Shown: positions 4,042-39,656, counted from the first letter of the stretch. The stretch: DNA of 64,000 nucleotides from a virus (IMGVR_UViG_3300045996_002876:1-64000), one strand, 5' to 3'. Numbers and translations: made by a program. The notes: a model not told the origin generated them from the sequence alone.

Positions 4042-5523
4042 ATGCCCGACACCGACTTCCTCGAGATCCTCAAGGCCCGCCGGACCCCGGTCGTCAAGGA
4101 CGGGGCCGCCCACCTGGTCGGGTCCGGGTACGCGTTCCTGACCCGCGGCGGGGAGAAGGCGGTCCTCGCCGACCCCCTCTCGGAGAAGGTGGCGTCCGAC
4201 GACGCGGCCATGACCCACCGGTTCCGGATCTCCAGCCCGTGCCTCGACCGGGCCGGGGACGTGGTCCGCCCGCTCGGGTGCCTGGCCGTCCGGGACGGGA
4301 AGCCCCTCCTCGACCGGTACCGGAAGAACCCCCAGGTCCTGTTCGGGCACGACAGCCGGGCCTTCCCGGTCGCCCGGTCGCGGGACGGCGGCGGGGCCTT
4401 CGGGGTCGACGTCCGGGAGGACGGGATCTTCGGGACGGCCGAGTTCCACGGGTCCACGTACGAGTCCGAGAAGTGCTACGAGCTGATCAAGCTCGGGTAC
4501 CTGAACGCCACCTCGATCGGGTTCAACCCGCTCAAGGCCCGGCTCCTGCCGGACACCCGCCCGGACCCCCGGCGGGGCGAGCTGAACTTCCAGTACCCCG
4601 GCCTGGACTTCGAGGAGTGGGAGCTCATGGAGTGGTCGGTCGTCCCGGTCCCGTGCAACCCCGAGGCCCTGGACGGGCTCAAGGGCTGGGTGGGCAAGGC
4701 GGCCGGCGGCGACTCCCCCCTCCTCCAGTCGATCAAGGCCATGCTGGCCACCGACGGCGGGGCCTCCGTGACCGTGTCCGTCCCGGCCGACCCCCCGCCG
4801 GCCCCCGTCCCGACGATCGAGCTCAAGGTCGAGCCGGTCGTCACCCTCAAGGAGGTCCCGGTGACGTTCGTCTCCGGGGTCGCCCTCGAGCCGTTCACCC
4901 CCTCCGAGGTGGAGGCCGTCGTGGGGCAGCTCACCGCCCCGAAGGTCGAGGTCAGGGAGCTGGTCGTCGAGGACCCGCGGGTGGCCGCCCTGGCGGCCAA
5001 GCTGGCCGAGCTGGAGGCCCGGTTCGCCGGGGCCGCCGCCAAGAACGCCGAGGCCCTCAAGGAGCTCCCGGTCCCGGCCGAGCCCCCGGCCCCCGAGCCC
5101 GAGGCCGAGGCCGAGGCGGCCCCGAAGGCCACCCCGCCGGTCGGGGCCTGGGTCCTCCTGAAGGGCAAGAAGGAGCTCGACGAGCTCTACCACCTGATCG
5201 AGGCCAAGCTCCCCCAGGTGGACAACCCGAAGACGTGCGCCTTCCTGGACGACCTGCACGCCGACCTGGACGCCCTCATGGGGAAGGTCCAGAAGTTCGG
5301 CCGCAAGCAGTACCCGGACTGGTTCCCGAAAGACGCCGACGACCCCAAGGCGGCCCCGGCCGAGGTCGAAAAGGCCGCGGTATCGGGCCCGGCGGGGACG
5401 CCAGTGGCGTCCCCGCCGGTGTGGACCCCGGAGATGGTGGCCGCCGCCCAGGCCGCCCTCGGCAAGCTGGCCGCCCTGGCCGAGCAGTCGGCCCGGTCCG
5501 TCTACCGGCTGACCGGCCGGTAG
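4042..5523 (+). CDS. Prohead maturation protease (HK97-like) with a long C-terminal extension
   Basis: DRAGDVV, YRKNPQVLFGHD, ATSIGF and ELMEWSVVPVPCNPEAL motifs. Confidence 0.88.
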   Translation: MPDTDFLEILKARRTPVVKDGAAHLVGSGYAFLTRGGEKAVLADPLSEKVASDDAAMTHRFRISSPCLDRAGDVVRPLGCLAVRDGKPLLDRYRKNPQVLFGHDSRAFPVARSRDGGGAFGVDVREDGIFGTAEFHGSTYESEKCYELIKLGYLNATSIGFNPLKARLLPDTRPDPRRGELNFQYPGLDFEEWELMEWSVVPVPCNPEALDGLKGWVGKAAGGDSPLLQSIKAMLATDGGASVTVSVPADPPPAPVPTIELKVEPVVTLKEVPVTFVSGVALEPFTPSEVEAVVGQLTAPKVEVRELVVEDPRVAALAAKLAELEARFAGAAAKNAEALKELPVPAEPPAPEPEAEAEAAPKATPPVGAWVLLKGKKELDELYHLIEAKLPQVDNPKTCAFLDDLHADLDALMGKVQKFGRKQYPDWFPKDADDPKAAPAEVEKAAVSGPAGTPVASPPVWTPEMVAAAQAALGKLAALAEQSARSVYRLTGR

Positions 5524-6351: not shown

Positions 6352-6714
6352 GTGATCCCCCTGACGAACGTCGGCTCGGTCTACGACTTCATCCCGGCCT
6401 CCCGCGCCCTGGGGATCGGGCGACGGGACTTCCGCGGGTACGACCGGCTGACCCTGGACGTGTACCACCAGAAGGTCGGGACGGGGACGATCTCCTACCA
6501 GCTCTGGAACGAGACGGCCGGGGCCCCCCTGCTGGACGCGGGCGGGGCCGAGGTCGTGGTCAGCGACGCCCAGGCGGCGGCCGCCCGGTTCCTGACCGCC
6601 ACCTTTACCGTCAACCGGGCGGACGTGATCCTCCTGCGGCTCCGGTCCAAGTCCACGGTGGCCGGGGACGACCCCGTCTTCCTCGGGGCCTCCGTCCTAC
6701 TGTGGAAGGCGTGA
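6352..6714 (+). CDS. Hypothetical, putative virion protein
   Basis: 120 aa, beta-rich, operonic. Confidence 0.6.
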   Translation: MIPLTNVGSVYDFIPASRALGIGRRDFRGYDRLTLDVYHQKVGTGTISYQLWNETAGAPLLDAGGAEVVVSDAQAAAARFLTATFTVNRADVILLRLRSKSTVAGDDPVFLGASVLLWKA

Positions 6715-30095: not shown

Positions 30096-30710
30096 TTACT
30101 CCTGGGGCCGGTGTTCCACGGCCTCCCGGTACCACTTCTCGGTCGCCACCAGGCACTCGACCGGGTCCTCGAAGACGAGGGGCGGCCGCCGGTCCGGGGG
30201 GACCTCCACCCACACGGCCGTCGTGTCCCGCAGGTCACAGACGCCGTGCCAGGAGAAGGCGACCCACCTCTGCTTGCCCCCCGAGGACCCGCAGAACCGG
30301 GGGAACCACAGGCGGGCGGTCATGACCCGCCGGGCTTCGCGGAGGTCTCCGAGCTCGGCCTCGAGCTCGGCGTAGCTCTTCCACCCGCCCCCCGGCTGGC
30401 ACCGCTGGGCGATGAATCGCTGACAGTTGGCCAGCATGGCCGCCGGGTCCCCGACGGTCGGAACGCGGGGCCCCAGGCCGAACGCGGCGTACAGCTCGTT
30501 GTCGTCGAACACGCACAGGTCGTCGGCGTGCTGGTCGTAGTGTCGGTGGACTGCCGCCCGGAGGCGCCTGTTGTCGGCCGCCAGCCGGTCGCGGTCGAAG
30601 GCCAGCCGCCGGAGGATGAGCAGACCGGCGGACGTCAGGCCGTCCCGGCTCGCTTCCAGCAGGGCCGCCACTTCCAGCTCGGTCGGTGGGGCCTGTAGGT
30701 CGTCACTCAT
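30096..30710 (-). CDS. Hypothetical protein
   Basis: 204 aa, operonic. Confidence 0.65.
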   Translation of the reverse strand: MSDDLQAPPTELEVAALLEASRDGLTSAGLLILRRLAFDRDRLAADNRRLRAAVHRHYDQHADDLCVFDDNELYAAFGLGPRVPTVGDPAAMLANCQRFIAQRCQPGGGWKSYAELEAELGDLREARRVMTARLWFPRFCGSSGGKQRWVAFSWHGVCDLRDTTAVWVEVPPDRRPPLVFEDPVECLVATEKWYREAVEHRPQE

Positions 30711-32691: not shown

Positions 32692-33051
32692 TCACAGGTT
32701 CCCGAGGACGGACTTGGACTTCTTCGCCTGGGCCCACGCGCCCAGGCCCGTGCCCCAGACGGCTTCCACGAACTTCTTGAACTCGGCCCACGGGGCGGCC
32801 CTCCCCCGCTCGTACGCCGGGTACATCATGAGGACGGCCTGCTCGCAGACGCTGGCGGTCAGCTCGTAGGCCTCCGCGGGGAGGAACCCGTGGAGCCGGT
32901 CGAGGGTCCGGGACAGCCCGGCCGGGTCGGCGCGGGCGTACTTCTCGAGGGCCAGGTCCAGGGCCCGCTCCTCGCGGGCGGTCAGGCCCCCGTCGAGGAA
33001 CGAGGCCCTTGGGAACAGGACGATCTCCGGGGGCGGGTCGGACACGGGCAC
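32692..33051 (-). CDS. Hypothetical protein
   Basis: 119 aa, operonic. Confidence 0.6.
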   Translation of the reverse strand: MPVSDPPPEIVLFPRASFLDGGLTAREERALDLALEKYARADPAGLSRTLDRLHGFLPAEAYELTASVCEQAVLMMYPAYERGRAAPWAEFKKFVEAVWGTGLGAWAQAKKSKSVLGNL

Positions 33052-33088
33052 AAGTCCCCGGGGGTGAGGGGCGGGCGAAGCCGGGGGC

Positions 33089-33801: not shown

Positions 33802-34419
33802 TTAAATTTCTACCACGATCGGCGCGTTCACGGGTCGATACGCCTCGTCCACCAGGGAGGCGTTCACGAACAGGGTCTTCCCGATCCGGTACGTCCCGTA
33901 CCCGGAGTGGATGTGCCCGGCGACTACCAAGCGGGGCTGGACGGCCTCGATCCGTGTCAGCAGGCTCATAGACCCGGTGTGGACCCGCCCGTAGGGGCTG
34001 AAGTCCCCGTGCCCGTACGGCGGGCCGTGCAGGACCAGGATGTCCGTGTCGGCCGGGATGGCGTCCCACCGCTTCTTCAGGTCCGGCTCGTCGGCGTTGA
34101 AGGCCCAGTCGAAAAACCGGGGCTGCCACGGGGACCCGTAAATCTTCAGCCCGCCCCACTCGACCCCAGAGTCCTGGAGGTAGGCCCAGTTCATCCGGGG
34201 GACCATGTGCGGGGCCCGCTCGAAGATGAAGTCGTGGTTCCCGGCCACCCCGACGATTTTCATCCGTCCCGCGGCCCGGTCGACCCACGGGGCGAACGCG
34301 TCCCGGTACCAGAAGGCGTCGGCGTGGTCCCGACAGTAGTCCCCGGCCAGGACCAGCAGGTCGCAGTCCGGGACCTCCGGGAGGTGCCCGTGCAGGTCGC
34401 TGAGACAACAGACTTTCAC
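33802..34419 (-). CDS. Calcineurin-like metallophosphoesterase
   Basis: SDLHG, LAGD, GNHD, HGPP and GHIH motifs. Confidence 0.92.
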   Translation of the reverse strand: MKVCCLSDLHGHLPEVPDCDLLVLAGDYCRDHADAFWYRDAFAPWVDRAAGRMKIVGVAGNHDFIFERAPHMVPRMNWAYLQDSGVEWGGLKIYGSPWQPRFFDWAFNADEPDLKKRWDAIPADTDILVLHGPPYGHGDFSPYGRVHTGSMSLLTRIEAVQPRLVVAGHIHSGYGTYRIGKTLFVNASLVDEAYRPVNAPIVVEI

Positions 34420-34441
34420 GGGCGACTCCAGGGGCGGGCAG

Positions 34442-34584
34442 ACCGAGCGGGGAGAGTCGAACTCCCAGGTGACCGGGGGCCCTCGCCTTCCGGTCGGGAC
34501 GGTGTCATAGGAGGGTGATCACTCCTCCCCGGCCGTCCAGGGAGCACTCCATTCGTCCTGCGTTTACCGTTTCGCCACGCTCGG
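34442..34584 (-). ncRNA. tRNA-like RNA A (Leu-type body, 52-nt insert replacing the anticodon loop)
   Basis: Acceptor CCGAGCG/CGCTCGG, D arm TG-GCG-AAACGGTAAA-CGC, stem GGACG/CGTCC, long variable arm, T arm GGGAG-TTCGACT-CTCCC. Confidence 0.8.
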
Positions 34585-34586
34585 GG

Positions 34587-34805
34587 TCAGGGCTTACCTA
34601 GGAGGCGTTCGATCAGCTCCTCCCGGTTGGAGAACACCAGGTTCCGGTTGACCGTACGGAGGTCCTTCCGGACCCAGCCTTTGACTTCCACGACCGCCCG
34701 GTCGGCGTCGAAGGAGATCAGCCGCCCCTGAACGAGGTCGATCCCGGACAGGGTTACCCAGTCGAACCGAAGGTCCACGACCCAATAGGTTTCGCCGATC
34801 TTCAC
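34587..34805 (-). CDS. Small hypothetical protein
   Basis: 72 aa from GTG 34805, between two tRNA-like RNAs. Confidence 0.6.
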   Translation of the reverse strand: MKIGETYWVVDLRFDWVTLSGIDLVQGRLISFDADRAVVEVKGWVRKDLRTVNRNLVFSNREELIERLLGKP

Positions 34806-34829
34806 GGGCCTCCCCCTCTGGTTCTTGAT

Positions 34830-34957
34830 CAGTCCCGGCGGGATTCGAACCCGCGGCGCTTCCCCTTCGTCGGCCCCGCTACGGCCCCCCGGGAAAGCGT
34901 CTCCGTAGCGGTAAGGTTTGGACCCCGGCTTGTGGCCGTTCTCACCCACGGGGACTG
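34830..34957 (-). ncRNA. tRNA-like RNA B (pseudoknot-like insert)
   Basis: Bulged acceptor CAGTCCC(C)G/CGGGACTG, T arm GCGGG-TTCGAAT-CCCGC, 9-bp stem CCGCTACGG/CCGTAGCGG. Confidence 0.7.
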
Positions 34958-35075
34958 CTGTCTTCCGCCAGGGCCGTCCGGGGCGGCGAAAGCCGCCCCG
35001 GACTCCCCGGCACTCACCACACCACACGACCCCACGCCGTGTACGCTACCACCCGACCGGGCAGGCCTGCGTCCC

Positions 35076-35942
35076 TCACCCGGGGAAGTACCCGCCCGGC
35101 CCGTAACTCCGGACCGGGGCCGGCCGCGGGGGGACGTACCCGGCCCCCGACCCGGTGAACCCGGGGACGTACGCGGGGAAGGCCTGGGGCGGGTAGTACT
35201 TGATCGGCGGGACTTCCGGCGGGGGCGGGAACCGGGGGTCCCCGACCGGGGTCGTTTTCATCTGGCCCTTGGCCGGCGGCGGGGGCGGGAGGGGGGCCTT
35301 CCTGGCCTCCCCCTCGGGGTCCTTGAGGAACCGGGTGACCTCGTCCAGGCGGACGGCCAGGGTGGTCGTCCGGTCCCCGGTGATCCCGCCGTACAGGACG
35401 GCCGCCAGCTCGCCGGCGGCGTTCACCAGGGGGCCGCCCGAGTCCCCGTGCCAGGACCCGATCCGGGCCAGGACGGCCTTGAACCCGTCCCCCCCGGTCT
35501 CGTTCACGGACTCGACCCGGCCCGACCGGGTGACCAGCGGGCCGGCCTCGGTGAACCCGTACTGGGTGAGGACGGCCCCGGCCGCCGGGGCCGTGGCGGC
35601 CACGGGCAGGCTCGGGAGGTCGGCCGCCACCCGCAGGAGGGCCAGGTCGCTCCGCCCGTCGGCGGCCACCAGGGCGGCCGGGTAGACCTTCCCGCCGGCC
35701 GTCAGGACCTCGTACGTCGCGTCGGCCGCCGGGGCCACGTGCTTGTTGGTCAGGACCAGGCTCACGCCGGCCTTGCTGGACACGACCGCCCCGGTCCCCC
35801 ACCCGCACTCCTTGGAGCGGCGGTGGGTGTGCGGGTCCTCGACGAACCGGGACCGGCAGACCTGGACGCAGGCCCCCTCGGGGCCGGCCAGGAGGCCGGC
35901 GGGGAGGGCCAGGAGGAAGAGGCACACGAGGCGGCGAATCAT
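35076..35942 (-). CDS. Secreted trypsin-like serine protease
   Basis: Signal peptide; TNKHV, DLALL and GDSGGP triad motifs; Pro-rich tail. Confidence 0.9.
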   Translation of the reverse strand: MIRRLVCLFLLALPAGLLAGPEGACVQVCRSRFVEDPHTHRRSKECGWGTGAVVSSKAGVSLVLTNKHVAPAADATYEVLTAGGKVYPAALVAADGRSDLALLRVAADLPSLPVAATAPAAGAVLTQYGFTEAGPLVTRSGRVESVNETGGDGFKAVLARIGSWHGDSGGPLVNAAGELAAVLYGGITGDRTTTLAVRLDEVTRFLKDPEGEARKAPLPPPPPAKGQMKTTPVGDPRFPPPPEVPPIKYYPPQAFPAYVPGFTGSGAGYVPPRPAPVRSYGPGGYFPG

Positions 35943-35976
35943 TCGCGTTCCAGAAAGGGCGTGGGCGGGGGCGGGA

Positions 35977-36255
35977 CTAGGACTTCGGGCGGCGGAGCCA
36001 CTCCTCGTACCGGGCACAGGACGCGTCGAGGCGGGCCCGGGCGGCCTCCGCCTCGGCCTTCTTCCGCTCGTCGGCGTACGTCCGGTCCCCGTACGGGATC
36101 GGCTCGTCGCACAGGTTCCCGTCGTACACCAGGTCCTCCTTGGACCCGGTCAGGACGGCGCGGGCGGCGTTGAGGTACGGCTCGAGGACGACGAACAGGA
36201 CCGGGACGAGGACGAAGGCCAGGCAGGCCAGGCCGGACAGGACGTCGGGGTTCAT
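35977..36255 (-). CDS. Small membrane protein
   Basis: N-terminal TM, ATGA coupling. Confidence 0.6.
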   Translation of the reverse strand: MNPDVLSGLACLAFVLVPVLFVVLEPYLNAARAVLTGSKEDLVYDGNLCDEPIPYGDRTYADERKKAEAEAARARLDASCARYEEWLRRPKS

Positions 36256-37307
36256 CGGAGAGTCGCCTCCTCGGCGGCGGCCTCGGCGGCGGCCTCCTCC
36301 TCGGACACGAGGGTGATGGCCGGGCAGTTCTCCTCGTAGAACATGGTCGCGAACTCGACCGCCCCGGCCCACCCGCGGGCCACGAACCGGCCGAAGGCGG
36401 GGACGACGTACAGGGGGTAGCCGACGACCTTGACGTGGTCCCAGACCCGCCCCAGGACGTCCCAGGTGGTCCGCCGGGACCGCACGAAGTAGGCCGCCCC
36501 GCCGGCGAGGATGCCCCAGAAGAGCATGCGGGCCAGGAACCAGAAGGCCGCCCCGGTCCCCTCGGCCGAGAACAGCCAGGCGATCCCCTGGCAGATCCAG
36601 TAGAGGGCCCAGGCGAGGAACAGGACGGCCTCGTACAGGAGGTAGGCGGCCGCCACGGCCAGGACGGCGTACAGGGCGTACAGCCCCCACTTGACGAACG
36701 CCCGCGAGAAGTTCGACCAGAACACCAGGCGGGCCCGGAGGGCCGCCCGGCGGGCCTCGGCCCGTGCCTTGGCGGCCTCGTACCGGTCGACCAGGAGGGC
36801 GTGCAGGGCCCGGGCCTCCTCCGGGACCAGGAGGGCGTACGGGAACTCGTGCTTCAGGAAGGTCCAGACGGTGTCGAACTCCTTGTACGACCCGGACGAC
36901 CAGTTCCGGAGGAGTTCGGTCAGGCGGGCCGCGAAGTGGGCCCGCTCCTGGCGGAGGGTCGGGGCGACCTCAGCCGCCGGCTCCCGCTCCGGCCGGCGGG
37001 CCAGGAGCCCGCGGAGGAAGCTCCCGACGGCGGTCAGCCCGTCCCCGACACGGGAAGCCCCCCAGGCGGCCCGGACCCCCCGGAACACGGCCCGCCCGAC
37101 CTTGACGGCCAGCAGGAGCGGGAGGAGGAGGGCGATCAGGTTGGTCAGGTGGAACAGCGGGCAGTAGTGGGTGTACAGGTACTTGGGCAGGCCGGTGTCC
37201 TGGGGCCGGGCCGGGTCGGCGTCGGCCACCCCGAAGGCCCAGTGGAGGAGGCGGTACCGCCAGTGCCCGAAGGACAGGGTCCGGTCGGCCTTGATCGAGT
37301 CGAGCAC
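36252..37307 (-). CDS. Multi-TM membrane protein
   Basis: 351 aa, several hydrophobic helices, YTHYCP and YEENCPAI motifs. Confidence 0.75.
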   Translation of the reverse strand: MLDSIKADRTLSFGHWRYRLLHWAFGVADADPARPQDTGLPKYLYTHYCPLFHLTNLIALLLPLLLAVKVGRAVFRGVRAAWGASRVGDGLTAVGSFLRGLLARRPEREPAAEVAPTLRQERAHFAARLTELLRNWSSGSYKEFDTVWTFLKHEFPYALLVPEEARALHALLVDRYEAAKARAEARRAALRARLVFWSNFSRAFVKWGLYALYAVLAVAAAYLLYEAVLFLAWALYWICQGIAWLFSAEGTGAAFWFLARMLFWGILAGGAAYFVRSRRTTWDVLGRVWDHVKVVGYPLYVVPAFGRFVARGWAGAVEFATMFYEENCPAITLVSEEEAAAEAAAEEATLR

Positions 37308-37335
37308 GCGGGACTCCTGGGAACTCGTCTGGAAG

Positions 37336-37458
37336 AAGGCGGGGTGGGGGTCGAACCCACACGGCCCGGGGACGCCCCCGGGAGCTCTCCCCGACGCCGG
37401 CGGGATGGGTACCCTCGCCGCCGGAGCCGGGCCCTCTCGGGCCTTGAGCTACCCGCCC
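37336..37458 (-). ncRNA. tRNA-like RNA C (large D-loop insert, closed anticodon arm)
   Basis: Acceptor GGGCGGG/CCCGCCT, TA-GCTC...GAGC D stem, CCCGGGG-GCGT-CCCCGGG arm, T arm GTGGG-TTCGACC-CCCAC. Confidence 0.8.
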
Positions 37459-37664
37459 GTAAAGCCGGGAGTCGCACGGAGGCCTCCCGGGGGCCCTGCC
37501 AATCCGTCCGCCGGCTTCCGCTCCGACCGAACTACTCCCCGGCGGGGGACCCGTACTCGCTCGACGTTACACCGTCCCCCGAGCGTTCGTGGGGGACTGG
37601 AACACCCGTTACGGCCCGCTGGGATGACGCTCTCGGTCGCCGGGTGACCACCCTTACGGGCGGG
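37452..37664 (-). ncRNA. Candidate ~213-nt structured RNA domain abutting RNA C
   Basis: 11-bp closing inverted repeat; inner stems CGACCGA/TCGGTCG, GTCCCCC/GGGGGAC and AAGCCGG/CCGGCTT. Confidence 0.6.
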
Positions 37665-37721
37665 CCCTTTGGGAGGAGCTTGACCAGTCCTACCGGATGA
37701 GGGCTATCGGTGTTCTGGGGC

Positions 37722-37754
37722 GGCCGGGGGAGGTCCTTCCGACCTCCCCCGGCC
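37722..37754. repeat. 14-bp perfect palindrome after groES
   Basis: GGCCGGGGGAGGTC-CTTCC-GACCTCCCCCGGCC. Confidence 0.8.
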
Positions 37755-37764
37755 CGGCTGTTTT

Positions 37765-38097
37765 TCAGTCCTCGAGGACGCCGAGGACGTCGGCCTCGCG
37801 GAGGATCCGGACCTTCCTCCCGCCGACCTCCTCCTCGTGCCCGGCGTACATGCCGAACACGACCGTCTGGCCGACGGCCACGTCGAGGATGAGGCGGCGG
37901 TTCTGGCCGGGGTCGTAGGCCCCCGGGCCGACGGCCGTCACCACCCCCCGGCCGATCTTCATCCGGGCCGAGTCGGGCAGGAGGATCCCGCCGGGGGTCT
38001 GGGTCTCGGTCACGGGCTCGACCACCAGGTGGTCGGCGAGGGGGCGGATCTTCATGTCTCTTGGTTCTCCTGATTGTTCCTTGCCGACCGTCTTCAC
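37765..38097 (-). CDS. groES: Co-chaperonin GroES
   Basis: MKIRPLADHLVV, TPGGILLPDSA, AVGPG and ILREADVLGV; alternative start ATG 38055. Confidence 0.92.
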   Translation of the reverse strand: MKTVGKEQSGEPRDMKIRPLADHLVVEPVTETQTPGGILLPDSARMKIGRGVVTAVGPGAYDPGQNRRLILDVAVGQTVVFGMYAGHEEEVGGRKVRILREADVLGVLED

Positions 38098-39627: not shown

Positions 39628-39656
39628 ACTATACGGGGGTGGGTAGGGAGAGTCAA
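39628..39656 (-). promoter_or_regulatory. Strong leftward promoter
   Basis: TTGACT-17-TATAGT. Confidence 0.75.

Follow-up and report, generated by a model that had tools for sequence, protein, structure and literature searches.

The DNA considered here (the window) is a stretch of 64,000 nucleotides (nt), the first 64 kb of the single-contig, 106,314-bp IMG/VR virus record IMGVR_UViG_3300045996_002876. Between positions 34442 and 37458 it holds three elements on the minus strand, of 143, 128 and 123 nt, which resemble transfer RNAs (tRNAs) to different degrees. The record has a GC content of 72% and an estimated completeness of about 73% (CheckV), and it is that of a tailed phage whose genes cover a portal and a major head protein as well as a DNA polymerase, a primase-helicase and a RecT-like protein. 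The host is probably a Gemmata-like planctomycete bacterium, because four TIGR02996 domains (rpt_mate_G_obs, named for Gemmata obscuriglobus) are found in the record, outside the window at genome positions 85396-96665 on the minus strand; two of the four score above the curated cut-off. A preliminary description had taken the three elements for one family of tRNA scaffolds without an anticodon, each carrying a different insert, and for an undescribed system. In the analysis presented here the elements are real, but only two of them (123 and 143 nt) are solid. The three are not one family by descent: one is a leucine-type class II shell, one an arginine-type class I shell, and the third is unclassifiable.

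The feature common to all three is the T arm, at 37360, 34854 and 34466 on the minus strand, with the perfect 5-bp stem and TTCGANY loop that had been described and with a G53-C61 pair. When the whole record is searched directly for a 5-bp stem with a TTCRANY loop and G53-C61, four T arms are found, all on the minus strand, and three of them are the elements; first-order Markov (Markov-1) genomes of equal size and composition contain 0.81 on average. T arms combined with a full 7/7 acceptor are observed twice against 0.12 expected from the Markov-1 genomes, an excess of about 17-fold. In both the 123-nt and the 143-nt element the 7/7 acceptor helix stacks directly on the T stem, and U8, a D stem, A14, G18G19 and A21 are present, so that the retention of T8 and a D stem in two elements also holds as described. 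The acceptor helix had been claimed for all three, and this part does not extend to the 128-nt element, where 6/7 pairs are at chance level. The fourth T arm, CCGGG-TTCGACT-CCCGG, lies outside the window at genome positions ~104975-105040 (minus strand) on a 6-bp helix with about 21 nt between its strands. It (~105031) has the form of a ~58-nt tRNA top-half minihelix, and is flanked by a stop codon and a GC hairpin in front of the next gene. None of the three elements encodes a CCA end. They have no sequence similarity to one another, and nothing similar recurs in the rest of the genome. Each of the three lies in non-coding DNA, with a GC content at third codon positions (GC3) of 0.76-0.85 together with high GC at second positions (GC2), against a GC3 of 0.85-0.99 in the flanking genes. 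In these points self-comparison and codon-position GC bear out what had been described.

The element that comes closest to an ordinary tRNA is the arginine-type one, with the following parts:

37336..37458, minus strand: 123-nt element, class I tRNA shell resembling tRNA-Arg(CCG) (ARAGORN intron mode, RF00005)
37458-37452 / 37343-37337, minus strand: acceptor, with a G1.U72 wobble, followed by U8 A9
37449-37433, minus strand: D arm
37431-37427 / 37369-37365, minus strand: anticodon-stem strands, 5 bp
37426-37420, minus strand: loop CUCCGGC, with CCG at 37424-37422 and Y32, U33 and G37
37370..37419, minus strand: insert of 50 nt, GC-rich, located by deletion scan
37364-37361, minus strand: variable loop
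37360-37344, minus strand: T arm
37336, minus strand: U73

Default ARAGORN reports no tRNA or transfer-messenger RNA (tmRNA) at all, either in the window or in the entire 106-kb record. In intron mode it reads the 123-nt element as tRNA-Arg(CCG), and the general tRNA family of Rfam (RF00005) aligns to the full 123 nt at 17.9 bits, under the cut-off of 29. In a scan of all single deletions, a 74-nt class I tRNA at 115% or more of the ARAGORN threshold results when 50 nt (or 38 nt) are taken out on the 3' side of the loop. The boundary of the insert can be slid by 1-2 nt and is therefore compatible with the canonical 37/38 intron site. The statement that no element has a canonical anticodon loop goes too far, as the loops are enlarged and not missing. 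"No anticodon" is inaccurate for this element, because a canonical-format loop with U33, CCG and G37 stands on an intact stem strand: CUCCGGC follows a 5-bp stem strand here, and in the 143-nt element AUGACAC precedes the other strand. Unspliced, the 123-nt RNA has an alternative fold in which the insert lies in the D loop as a large domain bounded by the D stem, with the anticodon arm zipped up as a 7-bp GCGU hairpin. This fold is the more stable by 12 kcal/mol (-76 against -64 for the intron-type fold). Upstream of the element, 635 nt (37459-38093) are without a coding signature, and a 14-bp hairpin with a T tail within them (37722-37754) reads as a plus-strand terminator.

The leucine-type element is a shell in which all helices pair:

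34442..34584, minus strand: 143-nt element, leucine-type class II tRNA shell
34584-34578 / 34449-34443, minus strand: acceptor, 7 bp, followed by U8 G9
34575-34560, minus strand: D arm, with a 3-bp stem and a AAACGGUAAA loop, A26 coming after
34558-34554 (GGACG) / 34501-34497 (CGUCC), minus strand: anticodon-stem strands, 5 bp, enclosing 52 nt instead of 7
34553-34509, minus strand: insert of 45 nt, followed by AUGACAC at 34508-34502
34496-34467, minus strand: variable arm of 30 nt with a 6-bp stem, U48 following
34466-34450, minus strand: T arm
34442, minus strand: U73

Its D arm is identical at 16 of 19 positions to that of tRNA-Leu(UAA) of a relative (locus L001), and the best matches are all Leu, with Ser lowest. 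AUGACAC, on the 3' side, is the sole 7-mer of canonical format in the anticodon region, and when the products of single excisions are enumerated by hand none of them restores a Leu anticodon loop. A Ser(GGA) reading by ARAGORN was rejected; it requires mismatches, and the D arm is leucine-type.

The third element has less to show:

34830..34957, minus strand: 128-nt element, with a perfect T arm at 34854-34838
34957-34951 / 34836-34830, minus strand: closing helix, with a bulged C at 34837

The closing helix has 6/7 stacked pairs, or 7/7 if the C is bulged. It carries no weight, because about 73% of random T arms have a 6/7 partner (on average 0.59 of the 0.81 T arms per Markov-1 genome). The core offers a possible 3-bp D stem (UGG/CCA) and an AACGG loop, and there is no recognisable anticodon arm. 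Deletion scans give only marginal tRNA readings, at most 105% of the threshold. ARAGORN also proposes an Ala(AGC) tRNA, which is spurious because its 968-nt "intron" spans the protease gene. Between the stop codon of that gene and the 128-nt element lies a perfect 12-bp hairpin with a UUUC loop and no U tract (34976..35003, minus strand), which the terminator scan does not call.

Searches for known relatives of the elements were largely blank. Rfam has no match for them at gathering thresholds, and relaxing E to as much as 10 brings up neither a tRNA nor an intron, ribozyme or Y RNA in 34300-37700. A tmRNA is found neither by the tmRNA mode of ARAGORN at its default threshold nor by Rfam. Among the known families to which a clean match would have spoken against the preliminary description, tmRNA and Y RNA give none. 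The intron-containing tRNA is half matched, as the 123-nt element reads as tRNA-Arg(CCG) with no splicing motif or enzyme to go with it. A blastn comparison of the element region with GenBank phages gives no match, and the exact 3'-end words of the elements match only a tRNA-Ile of an unrelated 53% GC phage (L044), or nothing. That 103-kb phage carries at 6417-6588 two adjacent tRNAs with a CUA anticodon, labelled "Pyl" by ARAGORN; these are candidate amber suppressors and hint at recoding of TAG. The major capsid protein of the record has no close relative in IMG/VR.

For the inserts themselves, a strict scan for the bulge-helix-bulge (BHB) motif gives chance-level matches only, none of which brackets either insert. 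The inserts measure 45-50 nt against about 200 nt or more, with a core, for a group I intron. Three further origins were considered and rejected. Internal tandem duplication is not indicated, as self-alignment scores no better than shuffles. Copying of a repeated mobile hairpin is contradicted by dissimilar elements and by a genome in which neither copies of the inserts nor mobile hairpin repeats occur elsewhere. For tRNA-shaped mini-introns the inserts have, by eye, neither a T loop nor a minihelix shape. If insertion is treated as random, two events would both land in the 7-nt anticodon loop with a probability of about (7/76)x(7/90), which comes to roughly 0.007 by our own arithmetic.

Shells of the leucine type are common in uncultured phages, where they have unrelated middles and covarying stems. 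The pattern used to scan IMG/VR combined the D-arm motif of the 143-nt element with a T loop located 85-112 nt downstream of it, and a site was called elongated if the T stem and acceptor helix had at least 6/7 pairs, with a shifted 5' strand as control. Elongated elements of 123-159 nt are formed at 42 of the 75 leucine-type D-arm sites in the loci retrieved, compared with 0-3 of 75 in the shifted-strand controls. This total length is insufficient for two tRNAs; 37 of the 39 first-pass elongated sites contain no standard tRNA, and their middles are unrelated. The "anticodons" that ARAGORN assigns to the shells in intron mode cover nine isotypes, with Leu assigned only once, and tRNA finders run in such a mode will label genes of this sort as intron-containing tRNAs with arbitrary anticodons. 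Two shells (L067 and L085) have a complete standard tRNA in their 3' part, which suggests partial 5' duplications of tRNA genes, not inserts. In an alignment (A3) of 31 distinct IMG/VR members with the 143-nt element and T5 RNA1, a stable RNA of phage T5, all 7 acceptor pairs and 4 of the 5 T-stem pairs vary on both sides and 99% of cells are paired; this pairing follows in part from the selection filter, which is not true of the contrast with the shifted controls. The covariation value is 0.72; shuffles give 0.20 (none of 500 reaches 0.72) and slid controls about 0.12. A corresponding scan with the class I D-arm motif of the 123-nt element finds 6 of 53 sites elongated (116-129 nt) and none in the controls.

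The 143-nt element aligns in register with these shells through its leucine-type D arm, U48 and the acceptor and T stems. It shares with them U8 G9, the GCGAAAYGGYARACGC D arm, U48, the T arm, the 7-bp acceptor and a variable middle, which is 73-109 nt long and different in each member; the identity of the D arm is partly by construction, because the D-arm motif was the search pattern. It is unlike them in having U73 where most members have A73, in being far more GC-rich, and in retaining a clear 5-bp anticodon stem and a long variable arm.

Each of the three elements ends 22-28 nt ahead of the next start codon, and the genes concerned are these:

33805..34419, minus strand: 205-amino-acid (aa) metallophosphoesterase (Pfam Metallophos), starting 22 nt past the 143-nt element
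34590..34805, minus strand: 72-aa gene between the 128-nt and 143-nt elements, starting 24 nt past the 128-nt element
36255..37307, minus strand: 351-aa membrane protein, with a GTG start 28 nt past the 123-nt element, behind AGGAG

The 72-aa gene has a coding GC3 of 0.85, compared with 0.76 for the upstream extension of its frame. The metallophosphoesterase has homologues in IMG/VR phages which, in L001 and L008, come directly after arrays of 10-11 ordinary tRNA genes; identity reaches 62% in L001, despite a gap of 34 points in GC content to that 38% GC phage. Its nearest solved relative is MPPED2 (PDB 3rl4, E 2.8e-33), and because of this relative it could be a cyclic-nucleotide phosphodiesterase, hence a candidate counter to cyclic-nucleotide defence signalling. 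A role as an RNA-repair enzyme of the Pnkp type was rejected, as the nearest structure is of the phosphodiesterase type. The membrane protein belongs to no Pfam or PHROG family; its 51 homologues come from metagenomes and from large phage contigs of as much as 669 kb, and the family has invariant motifs around YTHxCPL and FYEENCP. Scans of genome contigs and metagenomes with this protein find only distant, low-GC relatives. The closest of its homologues include P0002 at 44% identity. Homologues at four loci (L009, L013, L018 and L029) have tRNAs alongside, and members of the family are often found within tRNA arrays.

The elements are, as far as gene order can tell, the remains of a tRNA gene array that the relatives carry around the same two genes (metallophosphoesterase and membrane protein), because the ordinary arrays of those relatives surround them. 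Alone among its relatives, which have 10-30 standard tRNAs, this genome has none. The arrays of the relatives also hold odd pieces. At 2580-2697 of L001 lies a tRNA-like element of 118 nt with five arms, two of its hairpins resembling T arms, and in L009 a 120-nt element (4989-5108) combines a 7/7 acceptor and T arm with an unrecognisable core. The L014 array has duplicated tRNA 3' ends. At L008 1553-1730 a tRNA 3' half (T arm, acceptor strand) is followed by a 5' half (acceptor strand, D arm, anticodon stem) within a long enclosing helix, which looks like a permuted or split tRNA.

The reading preferred here, with a probability of about 0.5, is that the elements are non-decoding tRNA-shaped RNAs of the kind of T5 RNA1 and T4 RNA C, which would be released by ribonuclease P (RNase P) and 3' tRNA-processing enzymes with cuts that also punctuate the operon message. 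The elements would be co-transcribed with the flanking minus-strand genes. A possible start of this transcript is at 39656-39628, where TTGACT, 17 nt and TATAGT (39628-39656, minus strand) form the only sigma-70-like promoter match in 33.5-40 kb. The intact acceptor/T-arm half would then lead to a 5' cut by RNase P and to 3' trimming by the tRNA 3'-processing enzymes of the host, the host CCA-adding enzyme would complete the 3' end, and full-length RNAs of 123-143 nt would persist without decoding. The same cuts would sever the polycistronic message 22-28 nt before each downstream start codon. The released RNAs could occupy a tRNA-binding host protein, or could serve merely as processing punctuation. 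All steps after transcription are inferred. Of the earlier proposal of a tRNA scaffold with an insert, excised by host tRNA maturation, the shells with foreign sequence at the anticodon are found, and excision is the most economical reading of them. Non-decoding RNAs are favoured over splicing because the 143-nt shell regains no Leu anticodon and the "anticodons" in IMG/VR are scattered, and also because there is no BHB motif, no splicing enzyme in the record and a preference of 12 kcal/mol for the fold with the zipped anticodon.

Several observations weigh against this interpretation. No nucleotide-level homologue of any of the three elements is found among GenBank phages (blastn), with the 3'-end words or by way of the major capsid protein in IMG/VR. 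Excision of 50 nt from the 123-nt element at the canonical intron site yields a near-perfect tRNA-Arg(CCG), as would fit a spliced, decoding tRNA, and CGG makes up 61% of the Arg codons of the phage. The U73 of the 143-nt element departs from most leucine-type shells. The fold z-scores of the three elements are unremarkable (-2.0, -0.13 for the 128-nt element, whose fold energy equals that of shuffles, and -0.96), and shuffling the inserts does not make the cloverleaf less well preserved; the earlier argument that intact pairing implies selection is therefore not supported by thermodynamics. The 128-nt element may be a decayed relic. The persistence of T5 RNA1 in unspliced form rests on the annotation of its record, and the enzymes missing from the phage record prove little because that record is only about 73% complete.

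The decay of an array which the phage no longer needed is an unlikely alternative, though one to be taken seriously. It supposes that after a move to a host of 72% GC, with a tRNA pool matching the phage codons, the array became superfluous and left functionless, disrupted remnants. The loss of every standard tRNA would be expected under it, as would the gradient of intactness from the 123-nt through the 143-nt to the 128-nt element and on to the 58-nt minihelix at ~105031, the fold z-scores near zero in two of three elements, and inserts that confer no folding advantage. Partial and duplicated tRNA pieces are common in the arrays of the relatives (L014, L008), and there is an ascertainment bias, as only remnants that retain a T arm are visible. 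However, all helices of both good shells are intact despite large inserts, and two independent genes would each have been hit within the 7-nt anticodon loop. Useless DNA is usually purged from phage genomes, yet the elements stand tightly before start codons. Moreover, dozens of phages have elements built in this way, with stems that covary, and T5 and T4 have them as stable RNAs. Similarly doubtful is the possibility that these are functional tRNA genes, at least for tRNA-Arg(CCG), from which introns are removed by an unknown protein-dependent or host route. The excision at the equivalent of 37/38 that gives the loop CU-CCG-GC, the match to the main Arg codon, the position of both inserts in the anticodon loop as the usual site of tRNA introns, and the short conserved tRNA "introns" of Lak megaphages (PMC6784885) are all in keeping with it. 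It is opposed by the missing BHB motif and by inserts far too short for group I or II introns and without any Rfam ribozyme or intron family. The leucine-type 143-nt shell would yield only a Val-type (GAC) or a mismatched Ser(GGA) loop. The Arg product would carry G1.U72, a G10.G25 mismatch and U73 and would lack A20, features judged by identity rules taken from general knowledge. For the analogous T5 RNA1 the annotation gives a stable RNA of full, unspliced length. In the phage record, incomplete as it is, no RtcB, tRNA-intron endonuclease, Rnl1/Rnl2-type ligase or AAA_33 kinase is found (PF01974, PF01139, PF09414, PF09511, PF13671), although PF09511 (Rnl1) matched none of the control genomes either, so that its blank shows little.

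An origin at the level of DNA is very improbable. The attachment sites of phages are often copies of the 3' portion of a tRNA gene, and the elements might be the core of such a site (attP) or a recombination site derived from host tRNA genes; or they might be chance hairpins, as GC-rich DNA forms many helices and most random T arms find a 6/7 partner. Against this, whole tRNA shells are present, including the 5' acceptor strand and the D arm and thus going beyond 3' parts, and T arms with 7/7 acceptors are far above expectation. The gene set, with its own DNA polymerase and primase-helicase, is of a lytic type, though no search aimed at an integrase was made. A bolder extension of the non-decoding interpretation, in which the RNAs are a deliberate phage tool with a swappable middle that misleads or occupies a host tRNA-binding factor such as an anticodon nuclease or a tRNA-targeting defence, is speculative, and the same low probability covers the variant in which the middle is removed by a protein-driven tRNA splicing route not so far known from bacteria or their viruses. 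If either were true, T5 RNA1 and RNA2 and T4 RNA C would at last have a function. The window is a poor place for solving that function, as it comes from an uncultured phage without close relatives in the searched collections, while T5 and T4 are tractable systems.

Phage RNAs of this shape have long been annotated in T4 and T5, and reviews still call their roles unknown (PMC3014915). In T5 (AY543070), RNA1 (30501-30644, 144 nt) and RNA2 (32959-33083, 125 nt) are listed within the tRNA cluster as misc_RNA, "tRNA-like stable RNA with unknown functions". Both, at 125-144 nt, combine a tRNA-type D arm with an acceptor helix stacked on a T arm of consensus sequence, and the good elements of the window share this build. 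The D arm of T5 RNA1 is leucine-type, its anticodon "loop" measures 47 nt and ends in CUUAAAA, and the intron mode of ARAGORN, which gives intron-containing readings for the window elements too, reads it as tRNA-Leu(UAA) with a 40-nt "intron". Its roughly 40 extra nt thus lie inside the anticodon loop beside a 7-mer of canonical format, in the same way as the 50 and 45 nt in the window. The likeness is limited to the generic tRNA shell, and T5 is AT-rich in contrast to the 72% GC of the window phage. T5 also retains many real tRNAs beside RNA1 and RNA2 where the window phage has none, and the loop of RNA1 fits its own body (CUUAAAA, Leu-UAA), whereas the leucine-type shell of the window has AUGACAC. 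In T4, RNA C and RNA D are small stable RNAs from the tRNA region with unknown roles (PMC3014915, PMC9697503). RNA C, or species 1 RNA (AF158101 70908-71046, 139 nt), has a perfect T arm, CCGGG-UUCGAAU-CCCGG, on a terminal 7-bp helix; an anticodon arm and a clear D arm are both missing, and there are two U.U mismatches in its acceptor helix. RNA D has no T arm, and neither RNA is similar in sequence to the elements. At gathering thresholds Rfam has no family for T5 RNA1 and RNA2 or for T4 RNA C and RNA D, and a blank in Rfam is therefore uninformative on novelty.

Another comparison is with the tRNAs of Lak megaphages, which carry "enigmatic introns" (Devoto et al. 2019, PMC6784885). Like the 123-nt element, these are recognised only in eukaryote or intron settings, and they have short inserts in the anticodon loop with no known route of removal (PMC6784885). 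They differ in that their inserts are conserved across cohorts and one is tRNA-shaped, whereas the inserts in the window are simple GC-rich hairpins. The protein-spliced introns of archaeal and eukaryotic tRNAs (PMC4090602) are similar in that the 123-nt insert is compatible with the 37/38 site and that the anticodon pairs with the insert. They are unlike the elements of the window in having a BHB motif, and here the phage record has no endonuclease or ligase gene and the inferred host is bacterial. A search of the literature for tRNA introns of planctomycetes yielded nothing relevant. YrlA and other bacterial Y RNAs are non-decoding tRNA mimics with T-arm and D-arm elements; in YrlA the two ends of the RNA lie at the Ro-binding stem and the acceptor is capped. 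In the window elements, by contrast, the ends of the RNA form the acceptor, there is no Rfam match to a Y RNA, and the phage record contains neither a Ro (TROVE) protein nor a CCA-adding enzyme. With T5 RNA1 and RNA2, T4 RNA C and the Lak introns already on record, the claim of an undescribed system does not stand. The kind now extends to a 72% GC phage, probably infecting a planctomycete, that has no ordinary tRNAs and still retains the shells; such retention while every ordinary tRNA was lost points, weakly, to a use apart from decoding. By this comparison the elements in the window are best described as new examples of a kind of RNA already known from T5 RNA1 and RNA2 and from T4 RNA C.

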